64,000 nucleotides of DNA, taken from Burkholderiales bacterium (lineage in GTDB: Bacteria; Pseudomonadota; Gammaproteobacteria; Burkholderiales; Eutrophovitaceae). The DNA lies in the NCBI GenBank assembly GCA_040880425.1, contig JBBDIL010000027.1:39575-103574 (forward strand), given 5' to 3'. Under the pieces are notes generated by a model that was not told where the DNA came from, made no database searches, and saw only the letters and a list, made by a program, of their open reading frames with translations. A program made the position numbers and the translations under genes. Shown here in pieces: positions 7,033 through 45,219 of this stretch (position 1 is the first letter of the stretch; each line of letters opens with the position of its first letter).

Positions 7033-7135
7033 AGCGAAGGAGCCGGCCGGTTCGCCTACCTTCTTCCCGGCGGTCTTCTTCGGGTTTTGTTTCTTTTGGT
7101 GATCCTGGTGGCTCGCAGTGCCCTTCGTTGCCCCA

Positions 7136-7408
7136 CTATTCAGTCGGGGTGACTTCGAAGTTCCGGTAGTGGCCAATGCCGTCGTGGATTTCGACGCTGG
7201 TCACATGCGCCGTGCGCGGGCCCGACTTGGCCCAGCTGATGATCGATTCGACCGCCTCTGGATTGCCTTGAACCATCGCCTCCACCGTGCCGTCGCGACG
7301 GTTGCGCACCCAGCCGGTCACGCCCAGCTCCAGTGCGCGGATCCGCATCGAATCGCGATACGCCACGCCTTGCACGCGGCCGTGAATGATGAGGTGTCTG
7401 GTTACCAT
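7136..7408 (-). CDS. acyP: Acylphosphatase
   Basis: 90 aa with the acylphosphatase signatures GRVQGVAYR and GWVRNRRDGTVE. Confidence 0.9.
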   Translation of the reverse strand: MVTRHLIIHGRVQGVAYRDSMRIRALELGVTGWVRNRRDGTVEAMVQGNPEAVESIISWAKSGPRTAHVTSVEIHDGIGHYRNFEVTPTE

Positions 7409-7430
7409 GTCGTCAACGGCTTACGAGCGT

Positions 7431-7674
7431 AAAAGCGAAACACGAAGGCACGAAGAAAAGCGAAAACAGAAAAGAGTTCTCGACGCTGACGAATCAATTC
7501 CGTATGGATACCTGCAACAGTGGTCGCGGCAACTGAGTGCGAAGATCGGATTCTACTTCGTGACTTCGTGACTTCGTGACTTTGGCGCCGGCATCACGTT
7601 GGCTTCGCAAACGTGAGCCTGCTCCTCAACAAGTCGCGATGCGGCGTGTTGTGTGTTTCGCTCTTCTTTTCGTT
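7431..7674. repeat. Composite intercistronic inverted-repeat element C
   Basis: Left arm 7431-7474 (aaaagcgaaacacgaaggcacgaag...). Internal pyrimidine arm 7556-7580 is cttcgtga repeated three times. Second right arm 7651-7674 (gtgtgtttcgctcttcttttcgtt) is complementary to gcgaaacac in the left arm. It lies between metG and acyP, both on the - strand. Confidence 0.75.
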
Positions 7675-7680
7675 CAACGC

Positions 7681-9753: not shown

Positions 9754-9862
9754 CTGGACTTCTGCAGAAAAGCGGGAATTCTAGCAAACGCTCCGCTGTC
9801 GAAGTGTCCCGCGAACAAGCTTTTCGTTAGAATCCCACGCTTGACTTGGAAGGATGCAATTC

Positions 9863-10939
9863 ATGGCAGTTACCCAGGAGCAGATCAGATCAGCGATTTC
9901 CGAACTGGTCGACCCGGCAACCGGAGCGCCGTTTGAAGCGCGATCGGTCAAGGTTGACGGCGACAACGTTGCGGTCGAGGTCGGACTCGGATACCCGGCG
10001 AAAAGCGTGCACGCGGATGTGCGCGACACCATCGCGTCGAAACTCAAGGCCCTGCCAGGAGTGGGGAATATCAGCGTCGCTGTCGACAGCAAAGTCGTCG
10101 CGCATGCCGTGCCGCGCGGGCTGAAGCTGCTGCCCGGCGTGAAGAACATCATCGCGGTGGCGTCGGGCAAGGGCGGTGTGGGCAAATCGACTACCGCCGT
10201 GAACCTGGCGCTGGCGCTGGCGGCGGAGGGTGCAAAGGCAGGCGTGCTGGACGCCGATATATATGGTCCGTCGCAGCAGATGATGCTCGGTCTTTCCGGT
10301 CGGCCGCAGTCGGCGGACGGCAAGACCATCGAGCCGATGGAAAACTACGGTGTGCAGGCGATGTCGATCGGGCTGCTGATCGACGTCGATACGCCGATGG
10401 TATGGCGTGGTCCGATGGTGACGCAGGCGCTCGAGCAATTGCTGCGCGACACGCAGTGGAAGGAACTGGATTACCTGGTGGTGGACCTGCCGCCGGGCAC
10501 TGGCGACATCCAGCTCACGCTTTCGCAGAAGGTGCCGGTCACCGGTGCGGTGATCGTCACCACGCCGCAGGACATTGCCCTGATCGACGCGCGCAAGGGG
10601 CTGAAGATGTTCGAGAAGGTCGGCGTGCCGATACTCGGGATCGTGGAGAACATGAGCACGCACATCTGTTCCAAGTGCGGGCACGAGGAGCACATTTTCG
10701 GCGCCGGCGGCGCAGAGAAGATGTGCAAGGACTATGGCGTCGATCTGCTCGGCCAGCTGCCGCTCGACATCCGTATCCGCGAGCAGGCCGATTCGGGCAA
10801 GCCCACCGTCGTGGCCGATCCGGACGGGCAGGTGGCGAAGACCTACAGGGCAATGGCGCGCAAGGTTGCCGCAAAGCTGGCGACGATGGGCAAGGACTAC
10901 AGCTCGGCTTTCCCGAATATCGTGGTCCAGAACACTTAA
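9863..10939 (+). CDS. apbC: Fe-S cluster carrier ATPase ApbC/Mrp
   Basis: Deviant Walker A GKGGVGKST and the CSKCGH motif. The second ATG (9863) is preferred over the track start 9854 because the GGAAGGA RBS is then 8 nt upstream. Confidence 0.92.
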   Translation: MAVTQEQIRSAISELVDPATGAPFEARSVKVDGDNVAVEVGLGYPAKSVHADVRDTIASKLKALPGVGNISVAVDSKVVAHAVPRGLKLLPGVKNIIAVASGKGGVGKSTTAVNLALALAAEGAKAGVLDADIYGPSQQMMLGLSGRPQSADGKTIEPMENYGVQAMSIGLLIDVDTPMVWRGPMVTQALEQLLRDTQWKELDYLVVDLPPGTGDIQLTLSQKVPVTGAVIVTTPQDIALIDARKGLKMFEKVGVPILGIVENMSTHICSKCGHEEHIFGAGGAEKMCKDYGVDLLGQLPLDIRIREQADSGKPTVVADPDGQVAKTYRAMARKVAAKLATMGKDYSSAFPNIVVQNT

Positions 10940-11114: not shown

Positions 11115-11687
11115 ATGACAATAAAGTCCGACAAATGGATCCGGCGCATGGCGCGCGAGCACGCGATGATCGAACCATTCGAGCCGAACCAGGTCAAGAA
11201 GCTGGGGACGCGCCCGGTAATTTCGTTCGGCACGTCGAGCTATGGCTATGACATCCGCTGCTCGAACGATTTCAAGATCTTCACCAACATCAATTCCACG
11301 ATCGTCGATCCGAAGGCGTTCGACGAACGCTCGTTCGTGGATTTCCATGGGGACGTCTGCATCATCCCGCCCAATTCGTTCGCGCTCGCGCGCACGGTCG
11401 AGTATTTCCGCATCCCGCGCAATGTGCTCACCATCTGCCTGGGCAAATCCACCTATGCGCGCTGCGGCATCATCGTCAACGTGACGCCGTTCGAGCCGGA
11501 ATGGGAGGGCTACGTGACGCTGGAGTTCTCCAATACCACGCCGCTGCCGGCCAAGATCTATGCGAACGAGGGTGTTGCGCAGGTGATCTTCTTCGAATCA
11601 GCTCCGGACGACGTGTGCGAGACCTCCTACCGCGACCGCGGCGGCAAATACCAGGGCCAGCAGGGCGTCACGCTGCCCAAGGCCTAG
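11115..11687 (+). CDS. dcd: dCTP deaminase
   Basis: 190 aa, with full-length similarity to Dcd (KSDKWI..., [20 protein letters not shown]). Confidence 0.95.
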
Positions 11688-12206: not shown

Positions 12207-13379
12207 ATGACCCTGCGCCCCGTGCTCTCCCGCAGCGCCGAAACCGAAGCCCTGCTCGATACGCACCCGGAATCCGGCCTGGATTTCCGCCATGTCCGCG
12301 AAACCCTGCAACAGGGCTACACGAGCCCCTTCCTGCTGATCGACACCCAACTCGTTCGTGCCAAGTACCGGCGATTCCACGCCGCGATGCCGCGCGTGCA
12401 TGCGCATTACGCGGTGAAGGCGAATCCCGACCCGCGCGTGGTGCGGGCGCTGGCGGAAGAAGGCGCGGGTTTCGAGATCGCTTCGATTGCGGAACTGGAT
12501 CTCCTGCTGTCGCTTGGAGTCGCGGCCAACGCCGTGCATTACAGCAATCCGATCAAGGCGCGGGACTATATAGCCTATGCCGCCGCCAGGGGCGTCGAGT
12601 GGTTTGCGCTGGACAGCGTGGAGGAACTGCGCAAGATCGTCTCGGTGAAGCCGGACGCCAGGCTGTACCTGCGCATCGACACCCCCAACATCGGCAGCGA
12701 TTGGCCGCTGTCCGGAAAATTTGGAGTGCCGCTTAAGGAAGCGGGCGCAATCCTCGACGCGGCCGCCGAGCTTGGCGCCGATCTTTGCGGCGTCACTTTC
12801 CATGTCGGGTCGCAATGCCGCAACGCCGAGAACTGGCGCGTCGCGATCGACAACTCGAAGAAGATCTTCCGCAAGATGCGCCTTAAGGGGCTGCGGCCGC
12901 GGCTGCTGAATATCGGCGGCGGATTTCCGGTGCGGCTGACCAAGCCGATTCCCTCGATCGAAACCATCGGCGAGATCGTGAACGAATGTATTGCGGACCT
13001 GCCGGATGACGTGCGGGTGATGGCAGAGCCGGGCCGCTACCTGGTTTCCGATGCCGCGTATTTCGTGTGCAGGGTGATCGGCACGCTGACACGCGCCGGG
13101 CGCCGCTGGGTGTATCTGGATACCGGCATGTTCGGCGGCCTGCTGGAAAGCACCCAGGGTCTGCAGTACGAGCTGCGTACGGACCGCGGCGGAAAGCGGG
13201 TGCCTTGGCATGTCGCAGGCCCGACCTGCGATTCAGTTGATGTGCTGCTGCAGGATCACATGCTGCCCGAAGACCTGGCCGACGGGGACTTCATCTATAT
13301 CCCGAATGCCGGGGCCTACACGACGGCATACGCCAGTAATTTCAACGGTTTTCCGCTCCCCGAAGTGCGCGTTGTCTGA
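12207..13379 (+). CDS. Type III PLP-dependent decarboxylase (alanine-racemase fold), ornithine/lysine decarboxylase-like
   Basis: 390 aa with the PLP-lysine motif YAVKAN, then HVGSQ, GGGFP, EPGR and the CDS motif (GPTCDSVD) of the Orn/DAP/Arg decarboxylase group IV. Confidence 0.85.
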   Translation: MTLRPVLSRSAETEALLDTHPESGLDFRHVRETLQQGYTSPFLLIDTQLVRAKYRRFHAAMPRVHAHYAVKANPDPRVVRALAEEGAGFEIASIAELDLLLSLGVAANAVHYSNPIKARDYIAYAAARGVEWFALDSVEELRKIVSVKPDARLYLRIDTPNIGSDWPLSGKFGVPLKEAGAILDAAAELGADLCGVTFHVGSQCRNAENWRVAIDNSKKIFRKMRLKGLRPRLLNIGGGFPVRLTKPIPSIETIGEIVNECIADLPDDVRVMAEPGRYLVSDAAYFVCRVIGTLTRAGRRWVYLDTGMFGGLLESTQGLQYELRTDRGGKRVPWHVAGPTCDSVDVLLQDHMLPEDLADGDFIYIPNAGAYTTAYASNFNGFPLPEVRVV

Positions 13380-13422: not shown

Positions 13423-13458
13423 AGAAGCGGCAGGCCTGGGCCCCCCGCTTCTGTTTTA
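13423..13458 (+). terminator. Candidate intrinsic terminator after the ODC-like gene
   Basis: Stem agaagcgg (13423-30) pairs with ccgcttct (13445-52), followed by gtttta. Confidence 0.55.
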
Positions 13459-13635
13459 TGGTGCCTCGCACAACATAGAATGCGCCGTTCGTCATACCAG
13501 GAGGCCGGCATCGCACACAAACGCTTTGACGCCTCGCGCGTAACTCTGTTATGTTTCGCGCATAAAAACGCTTTAAAACTCGAGCGTTAAGACTCACGCA
13601 AAAACAAGTTCCGTTGTTCAGGAAGGGGGGTTCCA

Positions 13636-14970
13636 ATGCGGCGCCTGTACTGCCTCGCAATCGTGGCGAGTCTGCTGTTTGCTCCGGTCTTTTCTGCTTC
13701 TGCTGACGAGACACTGGTCCAGGCGAAAAGCCACCTGGACAGCGGCAATGCACGGGCCGCATACGACCTGCTGAACCCGCTGGTGCCGGAACGCGCCGGC
13801 GAGCCCGAATACGATTTCCTGCTTGGCGCCGCTGCGCTCGAACTGGGCAAGAACACGGAAGCAGTGTTCGCACTGGAGCGCGTGCTCGCCGTCCGGCCCG
13901 ATGCGGCGCCCGCCCGGGCACTGATCGCCCGTGCCTACTTCAACCTGAAGGAAACCGACACCGCCAAGCGCGAGTTCGAGAACGTCAGGCAGACGGCCGT
14001 CCCGTCCGACGTGGCGCTGACCATCGACCGTTTCCTCGATGCGATCGGTCGCATCGAAGACGCCAAGCGTGCCACCCTCCGCGGCTATGTCGAGATTGGA
14101 TTCGGGTACGACAGCAACGTCAACAGCGCAACCGCGGATGCGCAAGTCGCCGTCCCCTCGTTCGGCGGCACGATATTTTCGGTCTCCGGCGCCTCGCAGG
14201 AACAGGACGACTGGTTCATGAGTTTCGGCGGCGGCGTCAACCTGCGCGTGCCGATCAATCCCCGCTGGGCGGCGTTCGGCGGCGTGGCGTTCCAGCGCAA
14301 GAACAACTTCGACGAACACGACTTTTCGACTTACTACTACGACGCCAACGCGGGCATCAGCTACAAGCACGCGCGCAACACCATCACGCTGGCGGGGCAG
14401 GTCAACCACTTCTACGTCGACAACCCGCAGCTCTACCGCAAGGCCTACCGCGAGGCGCTCGGCGGCACGCTGCAGTGGCAGCACGATTTCAACTCGCGCA
14501 ACCAGGTCAGCGCCTTCCTGCAGTTCTCCGAGCTGCGCTATCCGGACCAGATGGTGCGAAACGCCGACCGCTACGTCGGCGGCATCGGCTACGCGCGCGC
14601 CTTTGTGCCGCGCGGGCCGATCGTCTATCTCGGTGTGTACGGCGGCGAAGAAAAAGAAAAGGAGAAAACCTTTCCGCAGTTCGGGCACGAACTGTACGGT
14701 GCCCGGCTTGGCTTCCAGCAGTCGATCAGCGAGAAGTATTCGATCTTTTTGAACGCGAGCGCGGAGAAGCGCGAGTACGGTGGGCAGGACCCGTTCTTTC
14801 TGGTTGCGCGCGAGGACGAGCAGTACAACGCTTCGGCGGGCATCCATTTCGTGCCCGGACGCAACATGCGGCTGACGCCGCAGGTGAGCTGGATCCAGAA
14901 CGATTCGAACATCCCGATCAACGAATTCGACCGCATCATCGGATCGCTGGTGTTCAGGTACGACATGTAA
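13636..14970 (+). CDS. TPR + outer-membrane beta-barrel protein, Slam/DUF560-like (candidate type XI secretion translocon)
   Basis: 444 aa with signal peptide ...PVFSASA/DE and about 130 aa of TPR-like helices. After that come alternating beta-strand patterns beginning YVEIGFGYDSNVNSA. The size and architecture match surface lipoprotein assembly modifiers. The next gene carries a Slam-substrate-type barrel. Confidence 0.65.
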   Translation: MRRLYCLAIVASLLFAPVFSASADETLVQAKSHLDSGNARAAYDLLNPLVPERAGEPEYDFLLGAAALELGKNTEAVFALERVLAVRPDAAPARALIARAYFNLKETDTAKREFENVRQTAVPSDVALTIDRFLDAIGRIEDAKRATLRGYVEIGFGYDSNVNSATADAQVAVPSFGGTIFSVSGASQEQDDWFMSFGGGVNLRVPINPRWAAFGGVAFQRKNNFDEHDFSTYYYDANAGISYKHARNTITLAGQVNHFYVDNPQLYRKAYREALGGTLQWQHDFNSRNQVSAFLQFSELRYPDQMVRNADRYVGGIGYARAFVPRGPIVYLGVYGGEEKEKEKTFPQFGHELYGARLGFQQSISEKYSIFLNASAEKREYGGQDPFFLVAREDEQYNASAGIHFVPGRNMRLTPQVSWIQNDSNIPINEFDRIIGSLVFRYDM

Positions 14971-15045
14971 CTGCACCAGGATTGGAGCGACATCGAGTTG
15001 TAGTGGCACAGATAACAACAAAGACATTAAGACGTTGCGCTTGCG

Positions 15046-15090
15046 CCTCACCCTTCTCCCCCGGGCGAAGGGCGGGGGATGAGGGAAGCG
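15046..15090. repeat. GC-rich imperfect hairpin (REP-like) between translocon and cargo genes
   Basis: cctcacccttctcccccgggcgaagggcgggggatgagggaag. The core stem tcccccg pairs with cggggga. It resembles common proteobacterial REP hairpins. Confidence 0.3.
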
Positions 15091-15154
15091 CGCGGTTCTT
15101 GAATCTACATTGCCCCGAAGCTGAGCCGGGGCGCTGAAAGGGAGATTGCCCAAA

Positions 15155-16585
15155 ATGCCGCAGGAAACTTTCAGACTGAGCCCGAGAGGCATGCTGCTCG
15201 CCTCGATCGCCGCCGCGTTCCCGCTCGCCAGCCAGGCTGCGCCGGTGGCCCGCGTCGACTTTGCCGTCGGCAACGTGATGGCGGTTGCACCCACCGGGCA
15301 AACCCGCCAGCTCGCCAAGGGCGCGCAGGTCGAGGAAGGCGAGACGGTCAACACCAACGCCGGCCGCGCGCAGTTGCGCTTCGTCGACGGCGCCTATGTC
15401 TCGTTGCAGCCGGAGTCCGAATTTCGAATCGATCAGTACCGGTATGAAGGCCGCGAAGACGGTTCCGAGAACGCCCTGCTGAGCCTGTTCAAGGGCGGCC
15501 TGCGCACCATCACCGGTTTCATCGGCCGCAGCAACAAAAAGAACTACCAGGTCACCACCACCGTCGCCACCATCGGCATCCGCGGAACCGAGTACACCAT
15601 CCAGTACGGCGAATCGATTCGCGGCACGGTCGGCGACGGCCAGATAGAAGTCTGCAACGGTGCCGGCTGCCTGAACGTGACCGACGGCGAAACCTACTAT
15701 GTCGCCAATCAGGACACGCAGCCGGTGCTGACCAACAAAGGTACCGATCTCCCGCCCGCCCCGCCGGAAAGCCCCCCGCAGAAGTTTACGGAGAACGAGA
15801 ATGTAGACGAGGAGGGAAATCTGTGTACCCTCTTTCCGGAACAATGCCTAGCGCCGTCAACGACAACAATACTAACCGGTACCATTACTGCTAACGTTGC
15901 GGCAATCACAACAGTGGAATGTGAAGGCCCCTGTGTGGACCAAGTTACGATAGACGGCACCACAGCAACGCTCAGTAACGCTGGTGCTTTGGTCAGTTTC
16001 GGATCGCAGACGCTGAACTCGTCAATCTCCAATGGAAACGACGGTATTATTGCATGGGGTACGGCGCCCTCATCTACTGGGGGTGAGTTTTCCTTAACAC
16101 CCACCGATACGATTCATTATGTAGTAGGGGCCCCATCTAGTAACGTATCCGCCTTGGGAGGTCTCACAGGAACGTATTCTTTGCTCGGCGGCACGGATCC
16201 TACCGGAGTAAATTCGGGACTGACTTCCACTACCAATAAACTTAATAGCGCCGACCTTTCGTTTAACTTCGCAGATGTAAGCGCATCTGGTTTTCTGAGG
16301 ATGAGCTGGACGCTCGAGGGGCAATCAATAAACACAGCTGGATCGGTATCGAGCTTCTCGGGCCCAACGTTCTCTGGGAACTTGCTCGATACAGACCAGT
16401 TATGTTCTGGTACTTGTGCGTCGGCTTTTGTTAATGGTTTTTTCGTGGGTTCAAATGCCGAACGCGCAGGATTGAGCTATCACGTGACTGGCGAATCGCT
16501 TAGCGATGATGGGCACATTGGTGCTGCTGCGTTGACGCAAACGGGGCTTACATTGAGCGATATTCGCTTGCAAGAGGGTCAATAG
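15155..16585 (+). CDS. Secreted FecR-domain protein with C-terminal TbpB/fHbp-type 8-stranded-barrel motifs (candidate Slam-dependent cargo, non-lipoprotein)
   Basis: Sec signal with a signal peptidase I (SPase I) site (PLASQA/AP) and no lipobox Cys. The FecR-like N-domain reads VDFAVGNV...GRAQLRFVDGAYVSLQPESEF...ATIGIRGTEY. There are four close Cys pairs. C-terminal motifs are GTYSLLGG, ADLSFNFADVSASGFL, FSGPTFSGN and GFFVGSNAERAGLSY...HIGAAALTQ. For comparison, the fHbp end is GIFGGKAQEVAGSAEV...HIGLAAKQ. ATG 15155 is preferred to the track TTG 15146. Confidence 0.7.
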   Translation: MPQETFRLSPRGMLLASIAAAFPLASQAAPVARVDFAVGNVMAVAPTGQTRQLAKGAQVEEGETVNTNAGRAQLRFVDGAYVSLQPESEFRIDQYRYEGREDGSENALLSLFKGGLRTITGFIGRSNKKNYQVTTTVATIGIRGTEYTIQYGESIRGTVGDGQIEVCNGAGCLNVTDGETYYVANQDTQPVLTNKGTDLPPAPPESPPQKFTENENVDEEGNLCTLFPEQCLAPSTTTILTGTITANVAAITTVECEGPCVDQVTIDGTTATLSNAGALVSFGSQTLNSSISNGNDGIIAWGTAPSSTGGEFSLTPTDTIHYVVGAPSSNVSALGGLTGTYSLLGGTDPTGVNSGLTSTTNKLNSADLSFNFADVSASGFLRMSWTLEGQSINTAGSVSSFSGPTFSGNLLDTDQLCSGTCASAFVNGFFVGSNAERAGLSYHVTGESLSDDGHIGAAALTQTGLTLSDIRLQEGQ

Positions 16586-17139
16586 ATTCGTTTCCGTTTC
16601 GATTCAGGATCGCTTTTGAACTTCGGAGTATGGTTTGGCCGGCTGTTTCGAATGCTGCCGAAGGAGTAGTACTATAAACGCCTAGCGATTATTCATTTGA
16701 ATGCATGACCTGTGCATCGGAGTTCTGTGCCAATTGTCCGCCGCGCATGTATGCCAGCCAGGTAATCTACGGCTTAGTTTGATTCGAACAATCGACCGGC
16801 ACGTCAAGTCAATCCAAAAGACAGTACCCATCGTTTTCCGAGAGCAAAGCACTGGCTCAGAAGTGTGTGCCGAGAAGGCAATCCGTTCTGCAGATTAGGC
16901 GAAAACTCTCAAGACGGCGCCTGCAGATGTCTCTTCAAGCTCTCGGAATCTCGCGCCCGAGATGGTTGTATGAAAGCGTGGCGAACCGCTGCTGTCACAC
17001 AGCGCTGTTGGCGATGCTATTACGCAGCTAAAATGCTCGGCCCGTAACTACATAGCGGTAACACCCATTGGTCTGAATATGGATTTCAGCCAATGAAGTG
17101 ACTCAGTAGCACAATGCGCTGATTGATCGCGAGTGCCAG

Positions 17140-19347
17140 ATGACGAATTGCGACAAAATTCTAACGGAGGCACTAGAACTAGTCTGTCGCGGTCGATGGC
17201 GCGACGCAATATGCCTGCTGGAAACAGTCATTGCCAACTCTGGGGAGACGTCCGAGACATATTTCCTTCTTGGTGCTGCAAGACATCGCCTTGGCCACTT
17301 CGCGCAGGCGGAAACGGCTTTCGTGCGCTGCCTTGAACTGGACCCCGGGCATAAACAAGCTGTGCTTGCAAGCGCGACCGTTCTTGGAAAGCAGAGGCGG
17401 TTCGAAGAGGCAGGGCGCCTGCTTCGAGATTATGTCGAGCGCGTGCCATACGACCCCGAGTTCAGATTTGCTTATGCCATAACTCTAGAGCATGGTGGTG
17501 CGTATGAGGCTGCGTTGAAGCAGTACGATCATGCATTAGAGTTGCGGCCTGGATACCTAGAAGCGTTAATGAATCGAGGACACGTTCTTTGTGTCATAGG
17601 GCAGACTGAGGAGGCGGTTATAAACAACCGACGTCTCGTTCAGGTTGCTCCAAAAAGCGCAACCTCGCATTTCAACCTCGCAGATTCATTACTGGCGACA
17701 AAAAATTTTGAGTCCGCAATATTGGCATGCAATCAAGCGATAGCCCTTGATGGTAATTTCACAAAAGCTTATATCAATCGGGCTCTTGCCAATATTGCGT
17801 TGGGGCGCGTTCTTGAGGGGGAGCGCGATCTTGCTCATGTGCGTGAATCGAATCCGACAGCATTAGAGGCGTTCCAGGCGGGATTCGCGAAACGAGCGGG
17901 AGGTTTATTTCACTCATTTGATTCGAGAAGTCTGTATTTACATCTTCAGTATGAATGGATTGCGGAGTGTGATTGGGCGAGATGGGGCGAATTCGTTAGT
18001 TCGCTGGAGTCTTTAATACTGGAAAGTGCAGAGACACTGCAAGCCTTAGATGATCCTAATCTGCCGTTTAGGGCACTGGGTTTCCCTATCAGCAAAAAGG
18101 CCTATGCAGCTCTAGTAGTATCGGTTGCTCGCGGCGTCTCTCGTCGCACCAGGAGTTGTGCCCCGTTTGTTTCCAGAAAAGGGACGCAAAACCGCATTCG
18201 CATTGGATATATTTCGCCAGACTATCGAACCCACCCAGGTGCATACTTGACTCGTCGCATGTACGGATTACATGACCGTGAGCGCTTTGAGGTTTTCGCT
18301 TATGCCCTTTACCCCGATGATAAATCTGAAGTGCGTAAAGACATTGAGAGGGGTTGCGACGTATTTCGCGATGTCTCGCGCTTCAATGCGAAGACAATAA
18401 TCGACCTGATTCGACGTGATGCAATTGATATTGCAGTTGATGTATCTGGTTATACCAATTTCACGCGACCGGACATTTTTGCGGGACGGGTTGCACCCGT
18501 GCAGGTACTTTATCTTGGATATCCCGGATCGCTTGGCGCGGACTGGATTGACTATGCGATCGTGGATCATGTCGTGTGTCCGGTCGATGCGGATACGTGG
18601 TGGAAAGAGAGATTGGTGCGTCTGCCGCATAGTTACTTCATCACAAACAACCAAGAGAGAGTCGATATCGAGGGCTTCAGTAGAACTGCGCTCGGATTAC
18701 CTGACGGTGCTTTCGTTCTCTGCTGTTTTAATAATCCTTTCAAGATAGACCCTGCGACGTTTGATGTCTGGATGAGAATTCTGCAGCGTACCGAAAGGGC
18801 GATACTATGGATACTGCAGACCGTCGATACGGTGTCAAGGAATTTGCGCAGCGAGGCGCATAGACGCAATGTCGATCCCGAGAGATTGGTTTTTGGATCA
18901 TTCATTTCGCCGCACGAACGACACCTGGGGCGTTATTACTTTGCCGACCTTTTTTTAGACACGAAATACTATAACGCGCACACTACCGCGATCGATGCAT
19001 TATGGTGCGGTGTCCCCGTAATCACGGTACCCGGCGATACGATGCCATCCCGCGTCGGTGCGAGCCTGCTCAATGCAATCGGCCTGCCTGAACTGATCTG
19101 CAAGGACTGGACGGAATACGAGGAGAAGGCGGTCTGGCTTGCGACGCACCCGGAAGAACTGGTTGCGCTGAAGCGCAAGCTGGCTGCGAACCGGGACAGC
19201 TATCCGCTGTTCGACACCGAAGGCCAGGTGCGGGCGCTGGAAGCGGCGTACGAAGAGATGTGGCGGCGTCATCAGGCGGGGCTGCCGCCGGCCGCTTTCG
19301 ACGTGAAGCCGCTGGTTAACAGGAACTTCCGCAATGCCTGGCACTGA
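17140..19347 (+). CDS. TPR-repeat protein with C-terminal GT41 (O-GlcNAc transferase/SPINDLY-like) glycosyltransferase domain
   Basis: 735 aa with no signal peptide. N-terminal TPRs are followed by IRIGYISPDYRTHPGAYL..., VLYLGYPGS.GADWIDY and TDxYNAHTT...D.LW.GVPV.T..G, typical of COG3914/GT41. Confidence 0.85.
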   Translation: MTNCDKILTEALELVCRGRWRDAICLLETVIANSGETSETYFLLGAARHRLGHFAQAETAFVRCLELDPGHKQAVLASATVLGKQRRFEEAGRLLRDYVERVPYDPEFRFAYAITLEHGGAYEAALKQYDHALELRPGYLEALMNRGHVLCVIGQTEEAVINNRRLVQVAPKSATSHFNLADSLLATKNFESAILACNQAIALDGNFTKAYINRALANIALGRVLEGERDLAHVRESNPTALEAFQAGFAKRAGGLFHSFDSRSLYLHLQYEWIAECDWARWGEFVSSLESLILESAETLQALDDPNLPFRALGFPISKKAYAALVVSVARGVSRRTRSCAPFVSRKGTQNRIRIGYISPDYRTHPGAYLTRRMYGLHDRERFEVFAYALYPDDKSEVRKDIERGCDVFRDVSRFNAKTIIDLIRRDAIDIAVDVSGYTNFTRPDIFAGRVAPVQVLYLGYPGSLGADWIDYAIVDHVVCPVDADTWWKERLVRLPHSYFITNNQERVDIEGFSRTALGLPDGAFVLCCFNNPFKIDPATFDVWMRILQRTERAILWILQTVDTVSRNLRSEAHRRNVDPERLVFGSFISPHERHLGRYYFADLFLDTKYYNAHTTAIDALWCGVPVITVPGDTMPSRVGASLLNAIGLPELICKDWTEYEEKAVWLATHPEELVALKRKLAANRDSYPLFDTEGQVRALEAAYEEMWRRHQAGLPPAAFDVKPLVNRNFRNAWH

Positions 19348-19358
19348 ACAGCAATTAC

Positions 19359-19868
19359 TCAGGCGATCCGTTCGAGTGTGACATAGCTGTAGTCCAGCCC
19401 GCTTGCTTCGTCCCGCGCGCTGAGGCGATCTGTTTCTTTCCATACGCCTTCCGGCAGTTCCGGGAACCAGGCGTCGCCGTCGAAGTCTCGATCGATCTCG
19501 GTCAGCAGGATACGGTCGGTCCGCGGCAGCGCGAGCGCATAAATCTCGCCACCGCCGATGATGAAAACCTCGTCATCGTCGCGCGATGCGGCGAGCGCGG
19601 CTTCAATCGAATCCACGACTTTCGCGCCCGGCACGCTGTAACCGGTCTGGCGGGTAATGATCACGTGCTGGCGGCCGGGCAGCAGGCGGCCGATCGATTC
19701 CCAGGTTTTGCGGCCCATGACGATGTGATGGCCCATGGTGAGCTGCTTGAAGCGCTTGAGATCGGCCGAGAGGTGCCAGGGCAGTTTGCCGTCCTTGCCG
19801 ATGACGCGATTCTTCGCCATCGCCACCAGTATGGAAACCCTGGGCCTTGGCCGCTGTAGTTCAGACAT
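19359..19868 (-). CDS. folA: Dihydrofolate reductase
   Basis: 169 aa with the DHFR motifs GKDGKLPW and IMGRKTWESIG. Confidence 0.95.
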   Translation of the reverse strand: MSELQRPRPRVSILVAMAKNRVIGKDGKLPWHLSADLKRFKQLTMGHHIVMGRKTWESIGRLLPGRQHVIITRQTGYSVPGAKVVDSIEAALAASRDDDEVFIIGGGEIYALALPRTDRILLTEIDRDFDGDAWFPELPEGVWKETDRLSARDEASGLDYSYVTLERIA

Positions 19869-19892
19869 CGGTAAAGGATAAATTGCGGCCGG

Positions 19893-20687
19893 CTAGACCG
19901 CCACCGGCGCCTTGATGGCGGGGTGCGGATCGTAGCCGACGAGGGTGAAATCTTCGTACTTGAAGCTGAACAGGTCTTTGACTTCGGGATTCAGGATCAT
20001 GCGCGGCAGAGGCCGCGGCTCGCGCGAAAGCTGCTCCTTCGCCTGCTCGAGGTGATTCAGGTACAGGTGGCAGTCACCGTAGGTATGCACGAACTCGCCA
20101 GGCTTGAGTCCGCAGACCTGCGCCACCATGAGGGTGAGCAGCGAATACGAGGCGATGTTGAACGGCACGCCGAGGAAAAAATCCGCGCTGCGCTGGTAGA
20201 GCTGGCAGGAGAGCTTGCCGTCGGCGACATAGAACTGAAAAAAAGCATGGCAGGGCGCGAGCGCCATGCGATCGAGGTCGGCGACGTTCCATGCGGACAC
20301 GATCAGTCGCCGCGAATCGGGATTGCGGCGGATCTCGTCCAGCACCCGGGAAACCTGGTCGATGTGACGGCCGTCCGGCGCGGGCCACGAGCGCCACTGG
20401 TAGCCGTATACCGGGCCAAGGTCGCCGTTCGCATCCGCCCATTCGTCCCAGATGGTGACGCCATGCTCTTTTAGATATCGGGTGTTGGTTTCGCCGCTAA
20501 GAAACCACAGCAGTTCGTGGACGATCGACTTGAGGTGGACTTTTTTGGTGGTGAGCAGCGGGAAACCCTGCTGCAGATCGAAGCGCAGTTGCGCGCCGAA
20601 AATGCTGATGGTTCCGGTCCCGGTGCGGTCGTCCTTGCGCGCGCCGCGGTCGAGAACATGCTGCATCAGGTCGAGGTAATTGCGCAT
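19893..20687 (-). CDS. thyA: Thymidylate synthase
   Basis: 264 aa with DRTGTGT, the active site [12 protein letters not shown], and [15 protein letters not shown]. Confidence 0.98.
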
Positions 20688-20809
20688 CGGGCTCCGGCGA
20701 AAATACGTGTAAGTTCAGTCGCTAACGCGGTCATGACGGGGCGTTGCGACGGCGCGATTGCATCGGGCGCTATGTTACACTTCGCCGCCTGTTTTCACGA
20801 GCGCGCGCA

Positions 20810-21973
20810 ATGTCCGGCAACACTCTCGGCAGGCTGTTCTGCGTTACTTCCTTCGGTGAGAGCCACGGGCCCGCGATCGGCTGCGTGGTGGACGGTTGCC
20901 CGCCCGGCCTCGTGCTTTCCGAGGCCGACATCCAGCAGGAACTCGACCGCCGCCGCCCCGGAACTTCACGACATGTCACCCAGCGGCGCGAACCGGATAC
21001 GGTCGAAATTCTCTCCGGCGTGTTCGAAGGCAGGACGACCGGCACGCCGATCGCGCTGCTGATCCGCAACCAGGACCAGCGTAGCAAGGATTACGGCAAC
21101 ATCGCCGAGACTTTCCGTCCAGGCCACGCCGACTACACCTACTGGCAGAAGTACGGCATCCGCGATTACCGCGGCGGCGGGCGGCAGTCCGCGCGCGAAA
21201 CCGCGGTGCGCGTTGCGGCCGGGGCAATCGCCAAAAAGTGGCTGCGCGAGCGCCACGGCGTCGAGATCCGCGGCTACATGTCGCAACTCGGCCCGAACCG
21301 CATCGCGTTCAAGAGCTGGGATGCGATCGATGCCAACCCGTTTTTCTCGCCGGATCCGGACATCGTGCCCGAACTCGAGGCGTTCATGGACCGGTTGCGC
21401 AAGTCGGGCGACTCCTGCGGCGCGCGCATCACCGCGGTGGCGCACGGCGTGCCGGTCGGTTGGGGCGAGCCGGTGTACGACAAGCTGGATGCGGAGATCG
21501 CCTACGCGATGATGAGCATCAACGCGGTGAAAGGCGTCGAGATCGGTGCGGGATTCCGCGCCGTCGAACAGCAGGGCACCGAGCACAGCGACGAGATGAC
21601 GCCGCAAGGGTTCGTTTCCAACAACGCGGGCGGTATCCTCGGCGGTATTTCCACCGGTCAGGACATCGTGGTCAGCATCGCGGTCAAGCCGACCTCGAGC
21701 ATCCGGCTCGACCGGCGCTCGATCGACAAGGCCGGCAAGCCGGTGGTGGTCAACACGCACGGGCGCCACGACCCTTGTGTCGGCATCCGCGCCACGCCGA
21801 TCGCGGAGGCGATGCTGGCGCTGGTGCTGATGGACCACGCCTTGCGGCACCGCGCGCAGAACGACGATGTTGCGTGCGAAACGCCGCGCATCCCGGCGCA
21901 GGCGCCCGCCGACGTGGTGGAGAAAGTGCGCAACGGGGCATCGCTGGAGAACCCGGACCCGGACGAGGCGTGA
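20810..21973 (+). CDS. aroC: Chorismate synthase
   Basis: Starts [20 protein letters not shown]. Also GRHDPCV. The track ORF start at 20744 is an upstream extension. Confidence 0.97.
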
Positions 21974-21976
21974 CCA

Positions 21977-22513
21977 GTGAACGCGATCGAGCGGCTGCGC
22001 GCGATCGCGGCGCATGAATGGCGCCCCGTAACAACGGCCGGTTTGCTCGGATTCTGCGCGATTGCCGGGATCGTCACCTGGTTTTCGCATACCGGCGAGC
22101 GCTGGGTGCCGATTCTCGATTCCGCCAATCTTGCGTTTCACGAAGCCGGGCACCCGTTGTTCGGCATTTTCTCGCAGCGGCTCACGGTCTACGGCGGCAC
22201 GCTCGGGCAGCTGGCGTTCCCGCTTGCGGCTGCGGCCTCGTTCTGGTTGCGGCGCGAAGCGCTGTCATTCGCGTTTTCCGTGGCCTGGCTCGGGCAGAAC
22301 TTCTGGAATATCTCGCGATACATGGCGGATGCCCGCGCCCGGATGCTGCCGCTGGTCGGCAGCGGAGAGCACGACTGGACCGAGATCTTCCTCCGCTGGG
22401 GCGTGCTGCAGTCGGATACCACGGTCGCGGCGCTGACGCGGGGACTGGGCTGGGGGGTGCTCGCCGGCGTGTGGGGATGGCTTGCCTTGCGCTGGCTGAC
22501 TGAACGCGAATAA
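21977..22513 (+). CDS. Small polytopic membrane protein with HExxH motif (function unknown)
   Basis: 178 aa with 4-5 hydrophobic helices and FHEAGHPLFG next to helix 1. GTG start lies 3 nt after the aroC stop. Confidence 0.55.
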   Translation: MNAIERLRAIAAHEWRPVTTAGLLGFCAIAGIVTWFSHTGERWVPILDSANLAFHEAGHPLFGIFSQRLTVYGGTLGQLAFPLAAAASFWLRREALSFAFSVAWLGQNFWNISRYMADARARMLPLVGSGEHDWTEIFLRWGVLQSDTTVAALTRGLGWGVLAGVWGWLALRWLTERE

Positions 22514-22534
22514 GGCTGCACCACTTATCATCAC

Positions 22535-23677
22535 ATGTTTCGCGCTTCGCTCTACGCCCGGCTGTCGGGTTTCTATTTCTGGTATTTCGCGTTCATCGGC
22601 GCCTTTGCGCCGTACTTCGCGCTGTACCTGCAGCGGCTCGGCTATTCCGCGGTGGAGATCGCGGTACTGATCGCGATCAACCCGATCTCGCGCATCTACG
22701 GGCCGAATCTCTGGGGCTGGCTCGCCGACCGGCATCACGCGCGCGGCACGATCGTTCGCTGGTGTGCGGTGCTGTCCGCGGTGATCTTTGCCGGCGTTCT
22801 GCTGGAACCGGGATTTCTCGGCATGCTGTTGCTGCTGGTGCTGCTGAACCTGTTCTGGTCCGGCATCCTGCCGCTGGCGGAAGCGGGCACGATGGCACTG
22901 CTCGGCGAACGCATGGGGACCTACGGCCGCATCCGGCTTTGGGGCTCCGTCGGTTTCGTGGTGGTGGTGGTCGCGCTCGGTTATCTGCTGGATGCGCTCG
23001 GCACGCGTGTGCTGGCGCCAACCATCGTGGCATTGCTTGTGTTCACTGCCGCGACAACATTTGCGCTGCCGCGCGACCGCAGTCGGTCCCGGAACACGGA
23101 GCAGGGTTCGATCGGCACGGTGCTGCGCCAGCCCGGGGTGCCGGCTTTGCTCGCCGGATTCTTCCTGATGCAGGTCGCGCACGGACCGTACAACACGTTT
23201 TTTTCGATCTACTTGGTCGAGACCGGGCATTCGAAGACGGTGGTGGGCTGGCTGTGGTCGATCGGCGTGCTGGCGGAGATCGCGCTGTTCATCTGGCTGC
23301 CGCGTCTGATGAAGCGTTTCAGTCTGGAGCGGATACTCGTCGCGAGTTTCGCCTGCGCGGCGCTGCGGTTCCTGCTGATCGCCTGGGGCGTACAGTGGCT
23401 TTCGCTCCTGGTCGTCGCCCAGCTCATGCATGCGGTGACCTTCGGCGCATTCCATGCCGCCGGAGTGGCGGCGATGCACCGCATCTTCAGGGGCCGGAAC
23501 CAGGCGCGCGGGCAGGCGATCTATACCAGTCTGGGTTACGGCGCGGGTGGCACGCTCGGCACGCTGGCTTCGGGGTATTCCTGGGAGCATCTCGGCGGCG
23601 CCGTCACTTTCAGTCTGGCGGCGCTGGCCGCGGTGGGCGCGCTGCTGCTGTTCCGCCGCTATTCACCGGTCCGGTGA
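22535..23677 (+). CDS. MFS transporter (MFS_1_like type)
   Basis: 380 aa with 12 predicted helices and N-terminal FYFWYFAFIGAFAPYFALYL...WGWLADR. Confidence 0.85.
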   Translation: MFRASLYARLSGFYFWYFAFIGAFAPYFALYLQRLGYSAVEIAVLIAINPISRIYGPNLWGWLADRHHARGTIVRWCAVLSAVIFAGVLLEPGFLGMLLLLVLLNLFWSGILPLAEAGTMALLGERMGTYGRIRLWGSVGFVVVVVALGYLLDALGTRVLAPTIVALLVFTAATTFALPRDRSRSRNTEQGSIGTVLRQPGVPALLAGFFLMQVAHGPYNTFFSIYLVETGHSKTVVGWLWSIGVLAEIALFIWLPRLMKRFSLERILVASFACAALRFLLIAWGVQWLSLLVVAQLMHAVTFGAFHAAGVAAMHRIFRGRNQARGQAIYTSLGYGAGGTLGTLASGYSWEHLGGAVTFSLAALAAVGALLLFRRYSPVR

Positions 23678-23751
23678 CCATGAATTCCAGACGCAAGCCG
23701 CGGATTTCGAAGCTCAATATGTCATAATCCGCGTTTCCCGGAAGCACTGCG

Positions 23752-25164
23752 ATGGCATCCCGAACTCTCTACGACAAACTCTGGTCCAGCCATGTCGTCC
23801 GGCAGGATCCCGACGGCACCGCGCTGATATATATCGACCGTCACCTCGTGCATGAGGTGACCAGTCCGCAGGCCTACGAAGGTCTGAAGCTCGCCGGCCG
23901 CAAACCCTGGCGCGTGGACTCTGTGGTGGCGACCGCCGACCACAACACGCCGACTCACGACTGGGACCAGGGCATCGCTGATCCGATCTCGAAGCTGCAG
24001 GTCGACACGCTGGACGCGAACATGCGCGAGTTCGGCGCGAAGGCCTATTTTCCGTTCCGCGACCGCCGGCAGGGCATCGTGCATGTGATCGGGCCGGAGA
24101 ACGGCGCCACGCTGCCGGGCATGACGGTGGTGTGCGGCGATTCCCATACTTCCACGCATGGCGCCTTTGCCTGTCTCGCCTGGGGTATCGGTACCTCGGA
24201 AGTCGAACACGTGCTCGCGACGCAGTGCCTGAACATGAAGAAAGCGAAGAGCATGCTGGTCGAGGTAGACGGCAAGCTCGGCCGCGGCGTGACTGCGAAG
24301 GATCTGATCCTTGCGGTCATCGGCAGGATCGGCACTGCGGGCGGCACCGGCTACGCCATCGAGTTCGGCGGCAGCGCGGTGCGCGCGCTCGGCATGGAAG
24401 GCCGCATGACGATCTGCAACATGGCGATCGAGGCCGGCGCACGGGCGGGCATGGTGGCAGTGGATGACACCACGATCGAGTATTTGCGTGACCGGCCGTT
24501 TGCGCCGAAGGACAAGATCCGGGATCGTGCGGTCGCGTATTGGCGGACACTGAAGTCCGACCCGGACGCGAAGTTCGATGCGATGGTCAGAATGGATGCG
24601 GCCGATATCAAACCGCAGGTTACCTGGGGCACGTCGCCCGAGATGGTCGACACGATCGACGGGCAAGTCCCGGATCCGGCGAAGATCGCCGACCCGACGA
24701 AGCGCACCTGGGTCGAGCGCGCGTTGCAATACATGGGCCTCGAACCGGAAACGCCGATCAAGCAGATCCGCATCGACAAAGTGTTCATCGGCTCCTGCAC
24801 CAACTCGCGCATCGAGGATCTGCGGGCGGCAGCCGAAGTGGTCAAGGGACGCAAAGTCGCATCCAGCGTCAAGCTGGCGATGGTGGTGCCGGGATCGGGG
24901 CTGGTGAAAGAGCAGGCCGAGCGCGAAGGGCTGGATCGCGTGTTCACCGCGGCAGGATTCGAGTGGCGCGAACCCGGCTGCTCGATGTGCCTGGCGATGA
25001 ACGACGACCGGCTCGAACCGGGCGAGCGTTGTGCGTCCACGTCCAACCGCAATTTCGAAGGCCGGCAGGGCGCAGGTGGCCGCACGCACCTGGTGAGCCC
25101 GGCAATGGCAGCGGGGGCCGCGATTGCCGGACACTTCGTCGACGTGCGCACCGATCTTCAGTAG
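23752..25164 (+). CDS. leuC: 3-isopropylmalate dehydratase large subunit
   Basis: 470 aa with aconitase-family motifs ([35 protein letters not shown]). Confidence 0.98.
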
Positions 25165-42766: not shown

Positions 42767-42815
42767 CGGGTTTCCTTTTTTCTAAGCGTGATTCTCTTGC
42801 AAGGACGCGCCTCTG

Positions 42816-45019: not shown

Positions 45020-45219
45020 CTGCTATACTTCGCCTCAAGTAGTAACGGTATGCTATTGATAAATAATAATTGATTCTACCAACAAGTGCCGGTCGGCGAC
45101 AATCTCTATGTAATGCCCTGCCGGCCTGCCCGATTGCCCCTGCCTGTACGCGTTCCGTCCACTCGCCAAGTGCATCCGGTAATCTGAAGCTCGCCCCGAA
45201 ATCCCGGATACCAAGCCAG

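Follow-up and report, generated by a model that had tools for sequence, protein, structure and literature searches.

In Neisseria and Pasteurellaceae, Slam-dependent proteins such as those encoded by tbpB, the modular variants of fHbp, and NHBA are mosaics produced by homologous recombination of diverged alleles. Conserved segments act as crossover points in these proteins, and the variable parts are ligand-binding or exposed modules. In pneumococcal capsule (cps) switching and O-antigen locus replacement, a variable block is swapped by homologous recombination in conserved flanks; the donors are often of different GC content, and the surface structure changes along with its glycosyltransferase. 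In Haemophilus and Actinobacillus, the GT41 enzyme HMW1C/NGT glycosylates the HMW1 adhesin before export.

Soluble cargo proteins of type 11 secretion systems (T11SS) include hemophilin (HphA/Hpl) and HrpC, and the hemophilin-type family is reported to diversify independently of taxonomy (Grossman et al., bioRxiv 10.1101/2023.03.15.532718; PMC12282271). T11SS are also known from published work to co-occur with folate and thymidylate genes. The T11SS literature examined describes no cargo protein with a FecR-like domain at its N terminus and no adjacent GT41 gene; FecR figures there solely as a domain of a neighboring regulator. The locus analyzed here has both. It lies in a window of 64 kb, the whole stretch of DNA under study, which is part of a 256-kb contig of a metagenome-assembled genome (MAG).

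A Slam-cargo-GT41 locus at a conserved chromosomal site

The genes of the locus and of its right-hand flank are the following.
13636..14970, plus strand: Slam/type 11 secretion outer-membrane protein gene, TPR and SlipAM/DUF560 (Pfam PF04575, E=1.7e-16), GC3 0.84, native composition
15155..16585, plus strand: cargo gene, whose product consists of a signal peptide of the Sec type, a FecR-like domain, and a Pro-rich linker that leads into a TbpB-lobe-like handle and 8-stranded barrel
17140..19347, plus strand: TPR and GT41 (OGT-like) glycosyltransferase gene (Pfam PF13844, E=1e-90)
19359..20687, minus strand: folA (19359-19868) and thyA (19893-20687), identified with Pfam, which form the conserved flank to the right of the variable region

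This arrangement, dcd ... Slam-cargoN / variable / folA-thyA-aroC, is a conserved site in Burkholderiales and Rhodocyclales. Placement of the Slam gene upstream of its cargo partner is conserved in 79 loci, and synteny of the folA-thyA flank likewise extends over 79 loci; here, folA is convergent with the GT41 gene, with a gap of 11 nt. No heme or TonB genes adjoin the locus in the window.

The ATG start of the cargo gene at 15155 is conserved with P0002 and P0247; other starts were called at 15146 (TTG) and 15191 (ATG, NCBI). The signal is of the AXA type without a lipobox Cys, and the protein is not a lipoprotein. Pfam places the FecR-like domain at residues 67-167 and detects no TbpBBD domain in the cargo at the sequence level. 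In an AF2 model, the C-terminal domain has a pLDDT of 80-96 and the linker is disordered; the top Foldseek matches of the modeled domain were TbpB, hemophilin (7re4), NHBA, HpuA, and fHbp. The glycosyltransferase matches human OGT (2e-104) and XcOGT (7e-77), with HMW1C as a remote match (1.8e-7).

A compositionally foreign tract starts and ends inside genes

An earlier note on this DNA had described a low-GC tract, rich in codons ending in A or T, whose two borders fall inside genes. Analyses of GC, GC3, RSCU, and change points confirmed this description and yielded the following features, in which "native" and "imported" refer to the probable origin discussed below.
15790..19077, plus strand: compositionally foreign tract, 3288 nt, GC 0.506, GC3 ~0.48
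15782..15818, plus strand: probable upstream crossover interval, located where the Pro-rich interdomain linker ends (...DLPPAPPESPPQKF...) and defined by the GC3 change point and the max-chi2 breakpoint versus L004
15791..16585, plus strand: imported cargo part, comprising the linker end and the whole handle and beta-barrel lobe; GC3 0.48, best database match 46% identical
16586..17139, no strand: noncoding spacer within the tract, 554 nt, GC ~0.50
19003..19078, plus strand: probable downstream crossover interval, located on the 3' side of the block that is most conserved in that part of the GT41 gene (...DALWCGVPVITVPG...NAIGLPEL)
19078..19347, plus strand: native GT41 3' end, GC3 ~0.8, 92% nucleotide identity to L005, host-like codon usage

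The GC content of 15790-19077 was 0.506, versus 0.624 +/- 0.014 (minimum 0.59) in all other 3.29-kb segments (z = -8.4). In 300-nt windows, GC was ~0.50 over ~15850-19000, with flanks of 0.60-0.67 on either side; in 1-kb bins, it was 0.494-0.508 in the three bins covering 16001-19000 and at least 0.571 in every other bin, making this the sole GC drop of its kind within the 64 kb. GC3 fell from 0.77-0.93 to 0.37-0.60 in the cargo gene and rose from ~0.5 to 0.8 in the GT41 gene. GC1 and GC2 were roughly constant across both borders; third codon positions rather than amino acid composition have changed. The tract GC3 of ~0.48 compares with 0.85 before nt 15800, with ~0.8 regained between 19003 and 19078, and with 0.69-0.85 in all 43 other open reading frames of at least 150 aa in the window.

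Maximum likelihood placed the upstream GC3 change point at nt 15800 (2-lnL support 15782-15818, lnLR 35.4) and the downstream one at nt 19003 (support 18943-19099, lnLR 17.4); both values exceeded the maximum of 9.2 among 1000 permutations. In RSCU, the two coding stretches within the tract correlated with the host set at only r = 0.05 and 0.23, whereas host genes had a median of 0.90 and never fell below 0.71; the last 89 codons of the GT41 gene, at 0.78, were host-like. The GT41 gene consists of ~646 codons of imported type followed by ~89 of native type. No paralogue is present within the 64-kb window.

Divergence from relatives changes at the same places

The closest relatives, L004 and L005, share 87-92% DNA identity with the window outside the tract and 51-61% inside it, where synonymous sites are near saturation. 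The cargo gene is 94% identical to that of L004 at the amino acid level and 87% at the nucleotide level up to nt 15814, the max-chi2 breakpoint, and 42% and 51% identical, respectively, thereafter. The GT41 gene is 61% identical in nucleotides to that of L005 until the max-chi2 breakpoint at 19078 and 92% identical thereafter. When the comparison with L004 was restricted to conserved residues, synonymous third-position identity dropped from 0.6-0.9 to 0-0.4 at the upstream border; with L005, it rose from 0.3-0.5 to 0.8-0.9 at the downstream border. Identity to P0128 was 53% for the TPR part of the GT41 protein, 66% for the middle, and 93% for the C-terminal part (split at residues 250 and 623).

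These identity jumps coincide with the GC3 shifts, and both reading frames are unbroken across the borders, with protein homology continuing through them, which supports the mosaic by homologous replacement that the earlier note had proposed. Of the borders that it had placed by hand at 15780 and 19010, the upstream one held to within ~20 nt. Downstream, 19010 fits the change in GC3, but divergence shifts at 19078, and the crossover would lie closer to the latter. It had also taken shared nearest neighbors of the two gene halves as evidence against a mosaic, and L005 is indeed nearest to both GT41 parts. This shared neighbor is uninformative, however, because synonymous divergence differs about five-fold between the two parts.

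Both crossovers would lie within locally conserved sequence: in aligned DNA, a conserved CCGCC..CCGCCGGAA block is located just 5' of the upstream one, and the conservation profile used downstream was built from 38 GT41s. Both closest relatives carry a CapK-like AMP-ligase gene (426-451 aa) at the position of the spacer, a gene that had gone unnoticed in the earlier note. tblastn with four CapK-like proteins found no remnant of it in the spacer, which also has no Rfam match and no terminator, and only weak promoter-like sites on the minus strand.

Origin of the tract

Our preferred explanation, with a probability of about 0.8, is homologous allelic replacement of the resident alleles by ~3.3 kb from an unsampled lower-GC relative that had a homologous Slam-cargo-GT41 locus. 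A donor segment of that length would have recombined into the resident cargo-GT41 region through two crossovers, one within the conserved, Pro-rich linker sequence of the cargo gene and the other in a conserved GT41 block close to the 3' end. The first in-frame chimera would join the native FecR-like N-terminal half to an imported TbpB-lobe-like handle and barrel, and the second would join imported TPRs and most of the OGT-like catalytic domain to the 89 native codons at the end of the gene. The CapK-like gene of the resident locus was probably lost in the same exchange, as it is present in both closest relatives. A donor with the same gene pair is supported by the homologous C-terminal lobe and GT41 that the tract encodes and by the occurrence of this order, without an intervening gene, in many relatives (L008-L010, L015-L017, and L087 lack the CapK-like gene between the two). 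The tract GC3 of ~0.48 suggests a donor genome of ~50% GC. Database searches returned no donor or donor-like sequence, the 46% match being the best for the C lobe and the relative L005 itself, at 66%, the best for the imported GT41 part; a metagenome scan gave at most ~54% over short segments. We infer both the direction of transfer and its occurrence as a single event.

It is unlikely that the tract arose in two or more separate events, with the lobe and GT41, for instance, acquired independently and perhaps from different donors. RSCU of the two coding parts correlates at only r = 0.30, so a single donor is not proven; moreover, independent exchange at the linker is frequent in the family, and the GT41 part is 53-66% identical to L005, with the lobe only 42% identical to L004. 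Nevertheless, GC and GC3 are even (0.47-0.53) through lobe, spacer, and GT41 without an internal step, lobe and GT41 co-vary across loci, and one event is more parsimonious. Slightly less probable still is an assembly chimera, in which a segment of a co-occurring lower-GC organism was threaded into a high-GC contig at two shared conserved stretches. The window does derive from a MAG, and its junctions lie in conserved sequence where genomes could share k-mers. Against this, Logan contig L085 (11.5 kb), made with different software, is 100% identical over 13441-25002 and unbroken at both junctions, although it may come from the same reads and would then represent an independent assembler rather than an independent sample. 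An exact in-frame double switch in two genes with a return to the syntenic flank is also improbable, and genomes with GC3 of 0.85 and 0.48 would rarely share exact k-mers long enough to bridge.

Sharp tract borders, together with a Transposase_mut gene upstream of Slam in L002 and L003, could point to a genomic island or mobile element inserted by site-specific or illegitimate recombination. We consider this quite improbable: a search of the borders found no integrase, transposase, tRNA, or meaningful direct flanking repeat, as the earlier note had reported, and no inverted repeat, both borders are in frame within homologous genes, and the tract replaces homologous resident sequence and adds none. 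Least probable of all, and very nearly dismissed, is a native tract whose low GC3 was kept locally, for example through relaxed codon selection or weaker GC-biased gene conversion in a hypervariable region, or because AT-rich regulatory properties were selected. GC3 of the C lobe is indeed below that of the N half in several relatives (0.60/0.84 in L004, 0.57/0.84 in L089, and 0.56/0.80 in L009), so that part of the lobe's deficit could be a family property and not the mark of this one event; GC3 is homogeneous at 0.73-0.91 over the same genes in the syntenic relatives L001 and L002. A native origin would leave unexplained the sharp step inside the GT41 gene, given homogeneous GT41 GC3 in L001, L002, L006, and L008, and the simultaneous jump in synonymous divergence at the same coordinates, whose five-fold difference refutes it.

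Probable module exchange across the family

The earlier note had further proposed that the C-terminal half of the cargo and the glycosyltransferase travel together. This was borne out over 33 loci, where cargoC correlated with GT41 when Slam and cargoN were controlled for (partial Mantel r = 0.45, p = 2e-4) and cargoC showed a partial Mantel value of -0.07 with cargoN given Slam; the correlation between Slam and cargoN was r=0.90. The cargo C-terminal lobe and the adjacent GT41 thus appear to be swapped as a unit family-wide, and Slam and the FecR-like half to be co-inherited. As for a surface-exposed diversifying cassette, its diversifying character is supported by cargo pairs with N halves 93-97% identical and C halves just 33-47% identical; surface exposure of the lobe is suggested by its TbpB-like predicted fold. 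Diversifying selection on the exposed module may drive the swapping. GT41 would putatively glycosylate the Ser/Thr-rich lobe ahead of Sec export and Slam-dependent release; N-X-S/T sequon density was not enriched in GT41-positive loci.

Comparison with known systems

The recombination mechanism is ordinary; what is modestly new is that a cargo lobe and a GT41 travel together as a module. As in the Neisseria and Pasteurellaceae systems, a Slam/T11SS gene adjoins a cargo gene for a TbpB-type handle and 8-stranded barrel. Unlike those, the cargo is a nonlipoprotein whose N-terminal part is a conserved FecR-like domain, variation affects the entire lobe, barrel included, and the exchanged segment extends over most of a glycosyltransferase gene; the hosts are not mucosal pathogens but Burkholderiales and Rhodocyclales from the environment. 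With hemophilin and HrpC, it shares a soluble Sec-dependent cargo, a handle-plus-barrel lobe, and an adjoining cognate T11SS gene; the published link to folate and thymidylate genes takes the form of fixed folA-thyA synteny at this locus.

As with HMW1C and HMW1, the gene of a cytoplasmic GT41 enzyme adjoins that of a Sec-exported, outer-membrane-translocated protein, but the enzyme is OGT-like with N-terminal TPRs, glycosylation of the cargo is putative, and the translocator is a T11SS instead of TpsB. As in cps and O-antigen loci, a variable block at a fixed chromosomal site between conserved flanks is replaced wholesale, which changes a surface or secreted structure along with its glycosyltransferase. 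There, crossovers take place in flanking housekeeping genes and the block encodes a polysaccharide pathway, whereas here a small block of 3.3 kb codes for a protein domain, and the crossovers fall inside functional genes to yield chimeric proteins.

Locus layout and gene identities

The low-GC tract (15790-19077) spans the C-terminal half of a Slam-adjacent gene, referred to as the cargo gene, a spacer and most of an OGT-like glycosyltransferase gene, GT41. Pfam searches identified the following genes around it:

11115-11687, dcd
12207-13379, Orn/DAP decarboxylase
13636-14970, Slam/SlipAM (DUF560) outer-membrane protein with TPRs (PF04575, E = 1.7e-16, and TPR_19)
15146, 15155 or 15191 (alternative starts) to 16585, cargo, a 'FecR family' protein
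between 16585 and 17140, spacer of 554 nt between cargo and GT41
17140-19347, protein with TPRs and a GT41 domain
19359-19868, folA, convergent with GT41
19893-20687, thyA, next to folA and followed by aroC

The Slam gene lies 176 nt upstream of the cargo ORF, an adjacency kept in related loci. Both reading frames are uninterrupted (cargo, 476-479 aa; GT41, 735 aa), and the two proteins are 100% identical to MEX0959852.1 (cargo) and MEX0959853.1 (GT41) of a 256-kb Burkholderiales MAG contig at NCBI. Three start codons are in use for the cargo gene, TTG at 15146, ATG at 15155 (Logan; kept in P0002, a cargo protein of a close relative) and ATG at 15191 (NCBI, 464 aa), the last of which cuts off the n-region of the signal peptide. 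The convergent GT41 and folA stop codons are separated by an 11-nt gap (19348-19358) in which a terminator hairpin would not fit; the alignment with L005, a contig from a close relative, runs on through it.

The cargo has a TbpB-like C-terminal lobe

As read from the sequence, the cargo starts with a Sec-type signal peptide, MPQETFRLSPRGMLLASIAAAFPLASQA followed by AP (…AAFPLASQA/AP), without a lipobox. A FecR domain (PF04773, aa 67-167, E = 1.9e-9) was its sole Pfam match at E <= 0.01, and neither a TbpBBD nor a lipoprotein-C domain was detected at that threshold. An AlphaFold2 model built on a 37-sequence alignment predicted a beta-rich N-terminal FecR-like domain, a disordered Pro-rich linker (model residues 183-203) within which the upstream crossover described below falls, and an all-beta C-terminal lobe made of a handle (230-313) and eight terminal strands (325-455), with pLDDT values of 80 to 96. 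Threonine, serine and glycine account for 13%, 13% and 12.5% of the lobe, respectively. A Foldseek search of the PDB gave 19 matches at E <= 1e-3, which were TbpB, the TbpB C-lobe, hemophilin and the NHBA C-domain; HpuA and fHbp came next (E of 2e-3 to 7e-3). All of these proteins are known Slam/T11SS (type 11 secretion system) cargo, and the names 'cargo' and 'barrel-domain half' are therefore structurally justified. The earlier note had used both labels, and the predicted lobe and its TbpB-type matches bear them out even without a Pfam TbpBBD match.

Despite its database name, 'FecR family protein', the cargo is not an anti-sigma factor, because it has neither an anti-sigma N terminus nor a membrane helix, the signal peptide leading straight into the FecR-like domain. 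A putative anti-sigma factor, 4m0n, is found among its weak Foldseek matches; no ECF sigma gene (sigma-70 family) was seen with Pfam among the neighbour genes examined.

The tract is compositionally foreign

The GC content is approximately 0.50 over positions ~15850-19000 and 0.60 to 0.67 in the flanks, and no 1-kb bin outside the tract falls below 0.571 across the window. The tract itself has a GC content of 0.506, compared with 0.624 ± 0.014 for all other segments of the same size (z = -8.4). The shift is confined to third codon positions, with GC1 and GC2 unchanged; GC3 of the 43 other ORFs ranges from 0.69 to 0.85. Likelihood analysis of GC3 placed the upstream change point at nt 15800 (support, 15782-15818) and the downstream one at nt 19003 (support, 18943-19099), each beating all 1000 permutations. 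The RSCU of the coding parts of the tract correlates with that of the host set at 0.05 and 0.23 only, compared with at least 0.71 for host genes and 0.78 for the last 89 codons of GT41. The low-GC tract with a codon-usage shift reported in the earlier note is thus real, lies beyond the host range and has statistically significant borders.

The order of genes from dcd to aroC is the same in two related loci, L001 (GCA_964534645) and L002 (GCA_936414735), in which GC3 is uniform at 0.73 to 0.91 over Slam, cargo, GT41, folA and thyA. Compared across 80-odd related loci, the drop in GC3 between the two halves of the cargo gene is largest in the window (0.84 for the N-terminal versus 0.48 for the C-terminal half). 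The tract is specific to the window genome. The lobes of several relatives also have a somewhat reduced GC3, which is consistent with repeated, older imports or could reflect a local compositional property.

Milder dips in GC (0.57 to 0.60 per kb), far weaker than the tract, occur at 7001-10000, 42001-43000 and 45001-46000. In L085, a Logan contig covering the locus, the gene caller reported GT41 only as a 191-aa C-terminal fragment (L085 5334-5909, corresponding to window 18772-19347) and nothing in the low-GC 5' 75% of the gene, for which NCBI gives the full 735 aa. Genes within such tracts can escape composition-trained gene finders.

Both borders are crossovers within genes

Two short metagenomic contigs from closer relatives, L004 and L005, allowed the breakpoints to be located by divergence. 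The L004 cargo, P0002, is 94% identical to that of the window in its N-terminal half and 42% identical in its C-terminal half. For the L005 GT41 protein, P0128, identity is 53% in the TPR part, 66% in the middle part and 93% in the C-terminal part, with splits at aa 250 and aa 623. Codon alignments show the share of synonymous third positions identical to L004 dropping from 0.6-0.9 to 0-0.4 at ~15790-15850, with the amino acids of the linker (…PPAPPESPPQKFTENENVDEEGNLCTLFPEQC…) still conserved across that fall; identity to L005 at such positions rises from 0.3-0.5 to 0.8-0.9 at ~19050-19080. Max-chi2 analysis placed the breaks at 15814 against L004 (nucleotide identity from 87% to 51%, chi2 of 197) and at 19078 against L005 (61% to 92%, chi2 of 99), with permutation maxima of ~21 in both cases. 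A general conservation gradient along GT41 cannot explain the jump against L005, because other homologues are 40 to 64% identical in the C-terminal part and 35 to 55% identical in the middle part.

The upstream crossover lies in a conserved linker block, CCGCC…CCGCCGGAA, and the downstream one where the best-conserved block of the GT41 C-lobe ends on its 3' side. The coincidence of GC3 and max-chi2 breaks within the cargo and GT41 genes confirms that, as first noticed by eye, both borders are intragenic. By composition the tract is foreign; it replaces resident sequence in frame, and each of its two crossovers falls in a conserved segment.

Nature of the exchange and search for a donor

In L001, L002, L004 and L005, a CapK-like AMP-ligase gene (426-451 aa) separates cargo and GT41. 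No remnant of it was detected in the 554-nt low-GC spacer or elsewhere in the window. The spacer has neither a terminator-like site nor a convincing plus-strand promoter, and Rfam gave no match in 14900-19500. Loci with cargo and GT41 and no CapK-like gene are common elsewhere (L008-L010, L015-L017 and L087). In the simplest scenario, a donor of this shorter architecture put 3.3 kb in place of ~4.1 kb of resident DNA. A lower-GC relative would have supplied the tract through a single homologous-recombination event, which may at once have changed the lobe and GT41 and deleted the CapK-like gene. This agrees with the origin proposed in the earlier note, homologous replacement from a lower-GC donor, and is supported by the composition, the jumps in synonymous divergence, the preserved frames and the lack of mobility genes.

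The tract is not a mobile element. No integrase, transposase or tRNA gene or border repeat is present at it, and a search for direct and inverted repeats at the borders returned only chance-level matches of 14 to 25 nt, in line with what had been remarked from the sequence. The tract is probably not an assembly chimera either; L085 (SRR27977663, 11.5 kb), obtained with another assembler possibly from the same reads, is 100% identical to 13441-25002, including both junctions. A paralogous locus acting as an internal donor was rejected, as none is present in the window. DGR-type mutagenesis, prompted by an Avd-like gene in L002, was likewise rejected, because neither a reverse transcriptase nor a template repeat is present and the differences are not adenine-specific. 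The L002 gene in question (15586-15909, 107 aa) lies between folA and thyA and matches 23S_rRNA_IVP/bAvd, a four-helix-bundle family to which DGR accessory proteins belong. Given its low GC content (0.488; GC3, 0.565) inside the conserved folA-thyA pair, it represents a further small insertion of foreign DNA at the hotspot. A Transposase_mut gene is located directly upstream of Slam in L002 (6897-7841) and in another related locus, L003 (1773-2717), and not in the window; mobile elements therefore do visit the locus.

In a 5.8-billion-protein collection, identity reached at most 46% for the lobe and at most 66% for the imported part of GT41, the latter match being L005. The incongruent nearest neighbour sought for the imported GT41 part was thus not found. 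No closer donor sequence came from GTDB species-representative genomes, scanned with the family alignment, or from JGI metagenome contigs, for which the imported part of GT41 served as query. The loci that hold the closest GT41 and lobe relatives (L086, L087 and L089) have a GC3 of 0.57 to 0.70 and do not resemble a donor; in the genomes of the nearest GT41 relatives, GC3 is 0.65 to 0.70. Low-GC family members (L055 and L066, GC3 of ~0.5) are only ~35% identical. Similarity in RSCU between the two halves of the tract was discarded as a single-donor test, the correlation being weak (r = 0.30) and uninformative at a GC3 of ~0.5.

The lobe is inherited with GT41 and the FecR-like half with Slam

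The arrangement of dcd…Slam and the N-terminal half of the cargo, a variable part, and folA-thyA-aroC is conserved over Burkholderiales and Rhodocyclales, among them Methyloversatilis, Propionivibrio, Accumulibacter and Azospira. Between the conserved flanks lies the lobe alone, the lobe with GT41, the lobe with CapK-like gene and GT41, or extra cargo copies. The family counts 576 confirmed matches among species-representative genomes, and metagenomes contribute more than 1000 proteins.

Among 58 cargo proteins, identities of the N- and C-terminal halves correlate at only 0.30, and pairs alike in the former and unlike in the latter are common, e.g., P0006/P0062 (97% and 38%) and P0021/P0069 (94% and 38%). 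In 33 complete loci, Slam correlates with the N-terminal half of the cargo (r = 0.90), and the correlation of that half with the lobe is not significant when Slam is controlled for (partial r = -0.07). In the same loci, the lobe correlates with both the catalytic part (partial r = 0.45, P = 2e-4) and the TPR part of GT41 (partial r = 0.37, P = 2e-4). These partial correlations support the proposal, made initially from the single tract, of lobe and glycosyltransferase moving as a pair. The cargo divides into a conserved FecR-like half, inherited with Slam, and a hypervariable TbpB-like lobe, inherited with the OGT-like GT41.

Tandem arrays are found at the site in L018, L022, L027, L033, L038, L040 and L060, some with the order cargo, GT41, CapK-like gene and second cargo, then folA; L060 has four copies of the cargo N-domain, two GT41 genes and one CapK-like gene. 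These arrays suggest duplication and shuffling of the module. The L001 and L043 cargo proteins (668 aa; L001 10001-12007) are ~200 aa longer than the family norm, and the extra sequence, between the FecR-like half and the lobe, may be an additional inserted module.

A possible role for GT41 in cargo glycosylation

GT41 has a strong PF13844 match (E = 1.1e-90) preceded by several TPR families in its N-terminal part (Pfam), and it is OGT-like (human OGT, 2e-104; XcOGT, 7e-77), with HMW1C a remote match (1.8e-7). Lobes encoded with GT41 are slightly richer in Ser and Thr than those without (22.8% versus 20.4%, P = 0.005, a statistic that ignores phylogeny). This small excess and the co-variation of lobe and GT41 are indirect hints that the neighbouring cargo may be the substrate of the enzyme. 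N-X-S/T sequons, sought as a hint of NGT-type glycosylation, are not enriched in GT41-positive loci.

HMW1C modifies HMW1 in the cytoplasm before Sec export. By analogy, and with weaker grounds than for the exchange itself, GT41 might modify the Thr/Ser/Gly-rich lobe in the cytoplasm ahead of Sec export. More broadly, the lobe and the OGT-like GT41 might form a co-adapted substrate-enzyme module, with Ser/Thr glycosylation preceding Sec export and Slam translocation, that is exchanged as a unit at the folA-thyA hotspot among environmental Burkholderiales and Rhodocyclales, the FecR-like half rather than the barrel being matched to Slam. We regard this reading as tentative, at roughly one chance in four. 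If true, T11SS would gain a glycoprotein-based, cassette-switching system of surface or secreted variation. The family-wide pattern offers the testable hypothesis that some T11SS cargo proteins are glycoproteins with a dedicated GT41.

Relation to known T11SS loci

The tract is a textbook-quality in-frame allelic replacement, and annotators should be warned that both genes are chimeric. The pattern across this large, uncharacterised family of T11SS loci is more useful than the single tract, and it calls into question whether the barrel sequence determines Slam specificity, as has been assumed.

In the accessible text of the T11SS papers (bioRxiv 10.1101/2023.03.15.532718; PMC12282271), cargo proteins are unified by a C-terminal barrel, and their families diversify independently of taxonomy. 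The only appearance of FecR there is as a regulatory domain in the neighbourhood, one that did not pass the FDR filter; cargo glycosylation is raised as speculation only, and an association of GT41 with T11SS was not found in that text. T11SS genes are also reported there to co-occur statistically with genes for folate and thymidylate (PMC12282271). In the window (13636-20687), as in 79 related loci, Slam-cargo and folA-thyA stand in fixed synteny. That synteny accounts for the published co-occurrence in this clade, with no need for a functional link.

Neisseria tbpB and fHbp are well-known cases of homologous allelic replacement yielding mosaic genes at Slam cargo loci. Relative to such systems, the present locus is modestly new in three respects: its cargo is soluble and fused to FecR, the variable half is the barrel-containing lobe, and this lobe is co-inherited with an OGT-like GT41.
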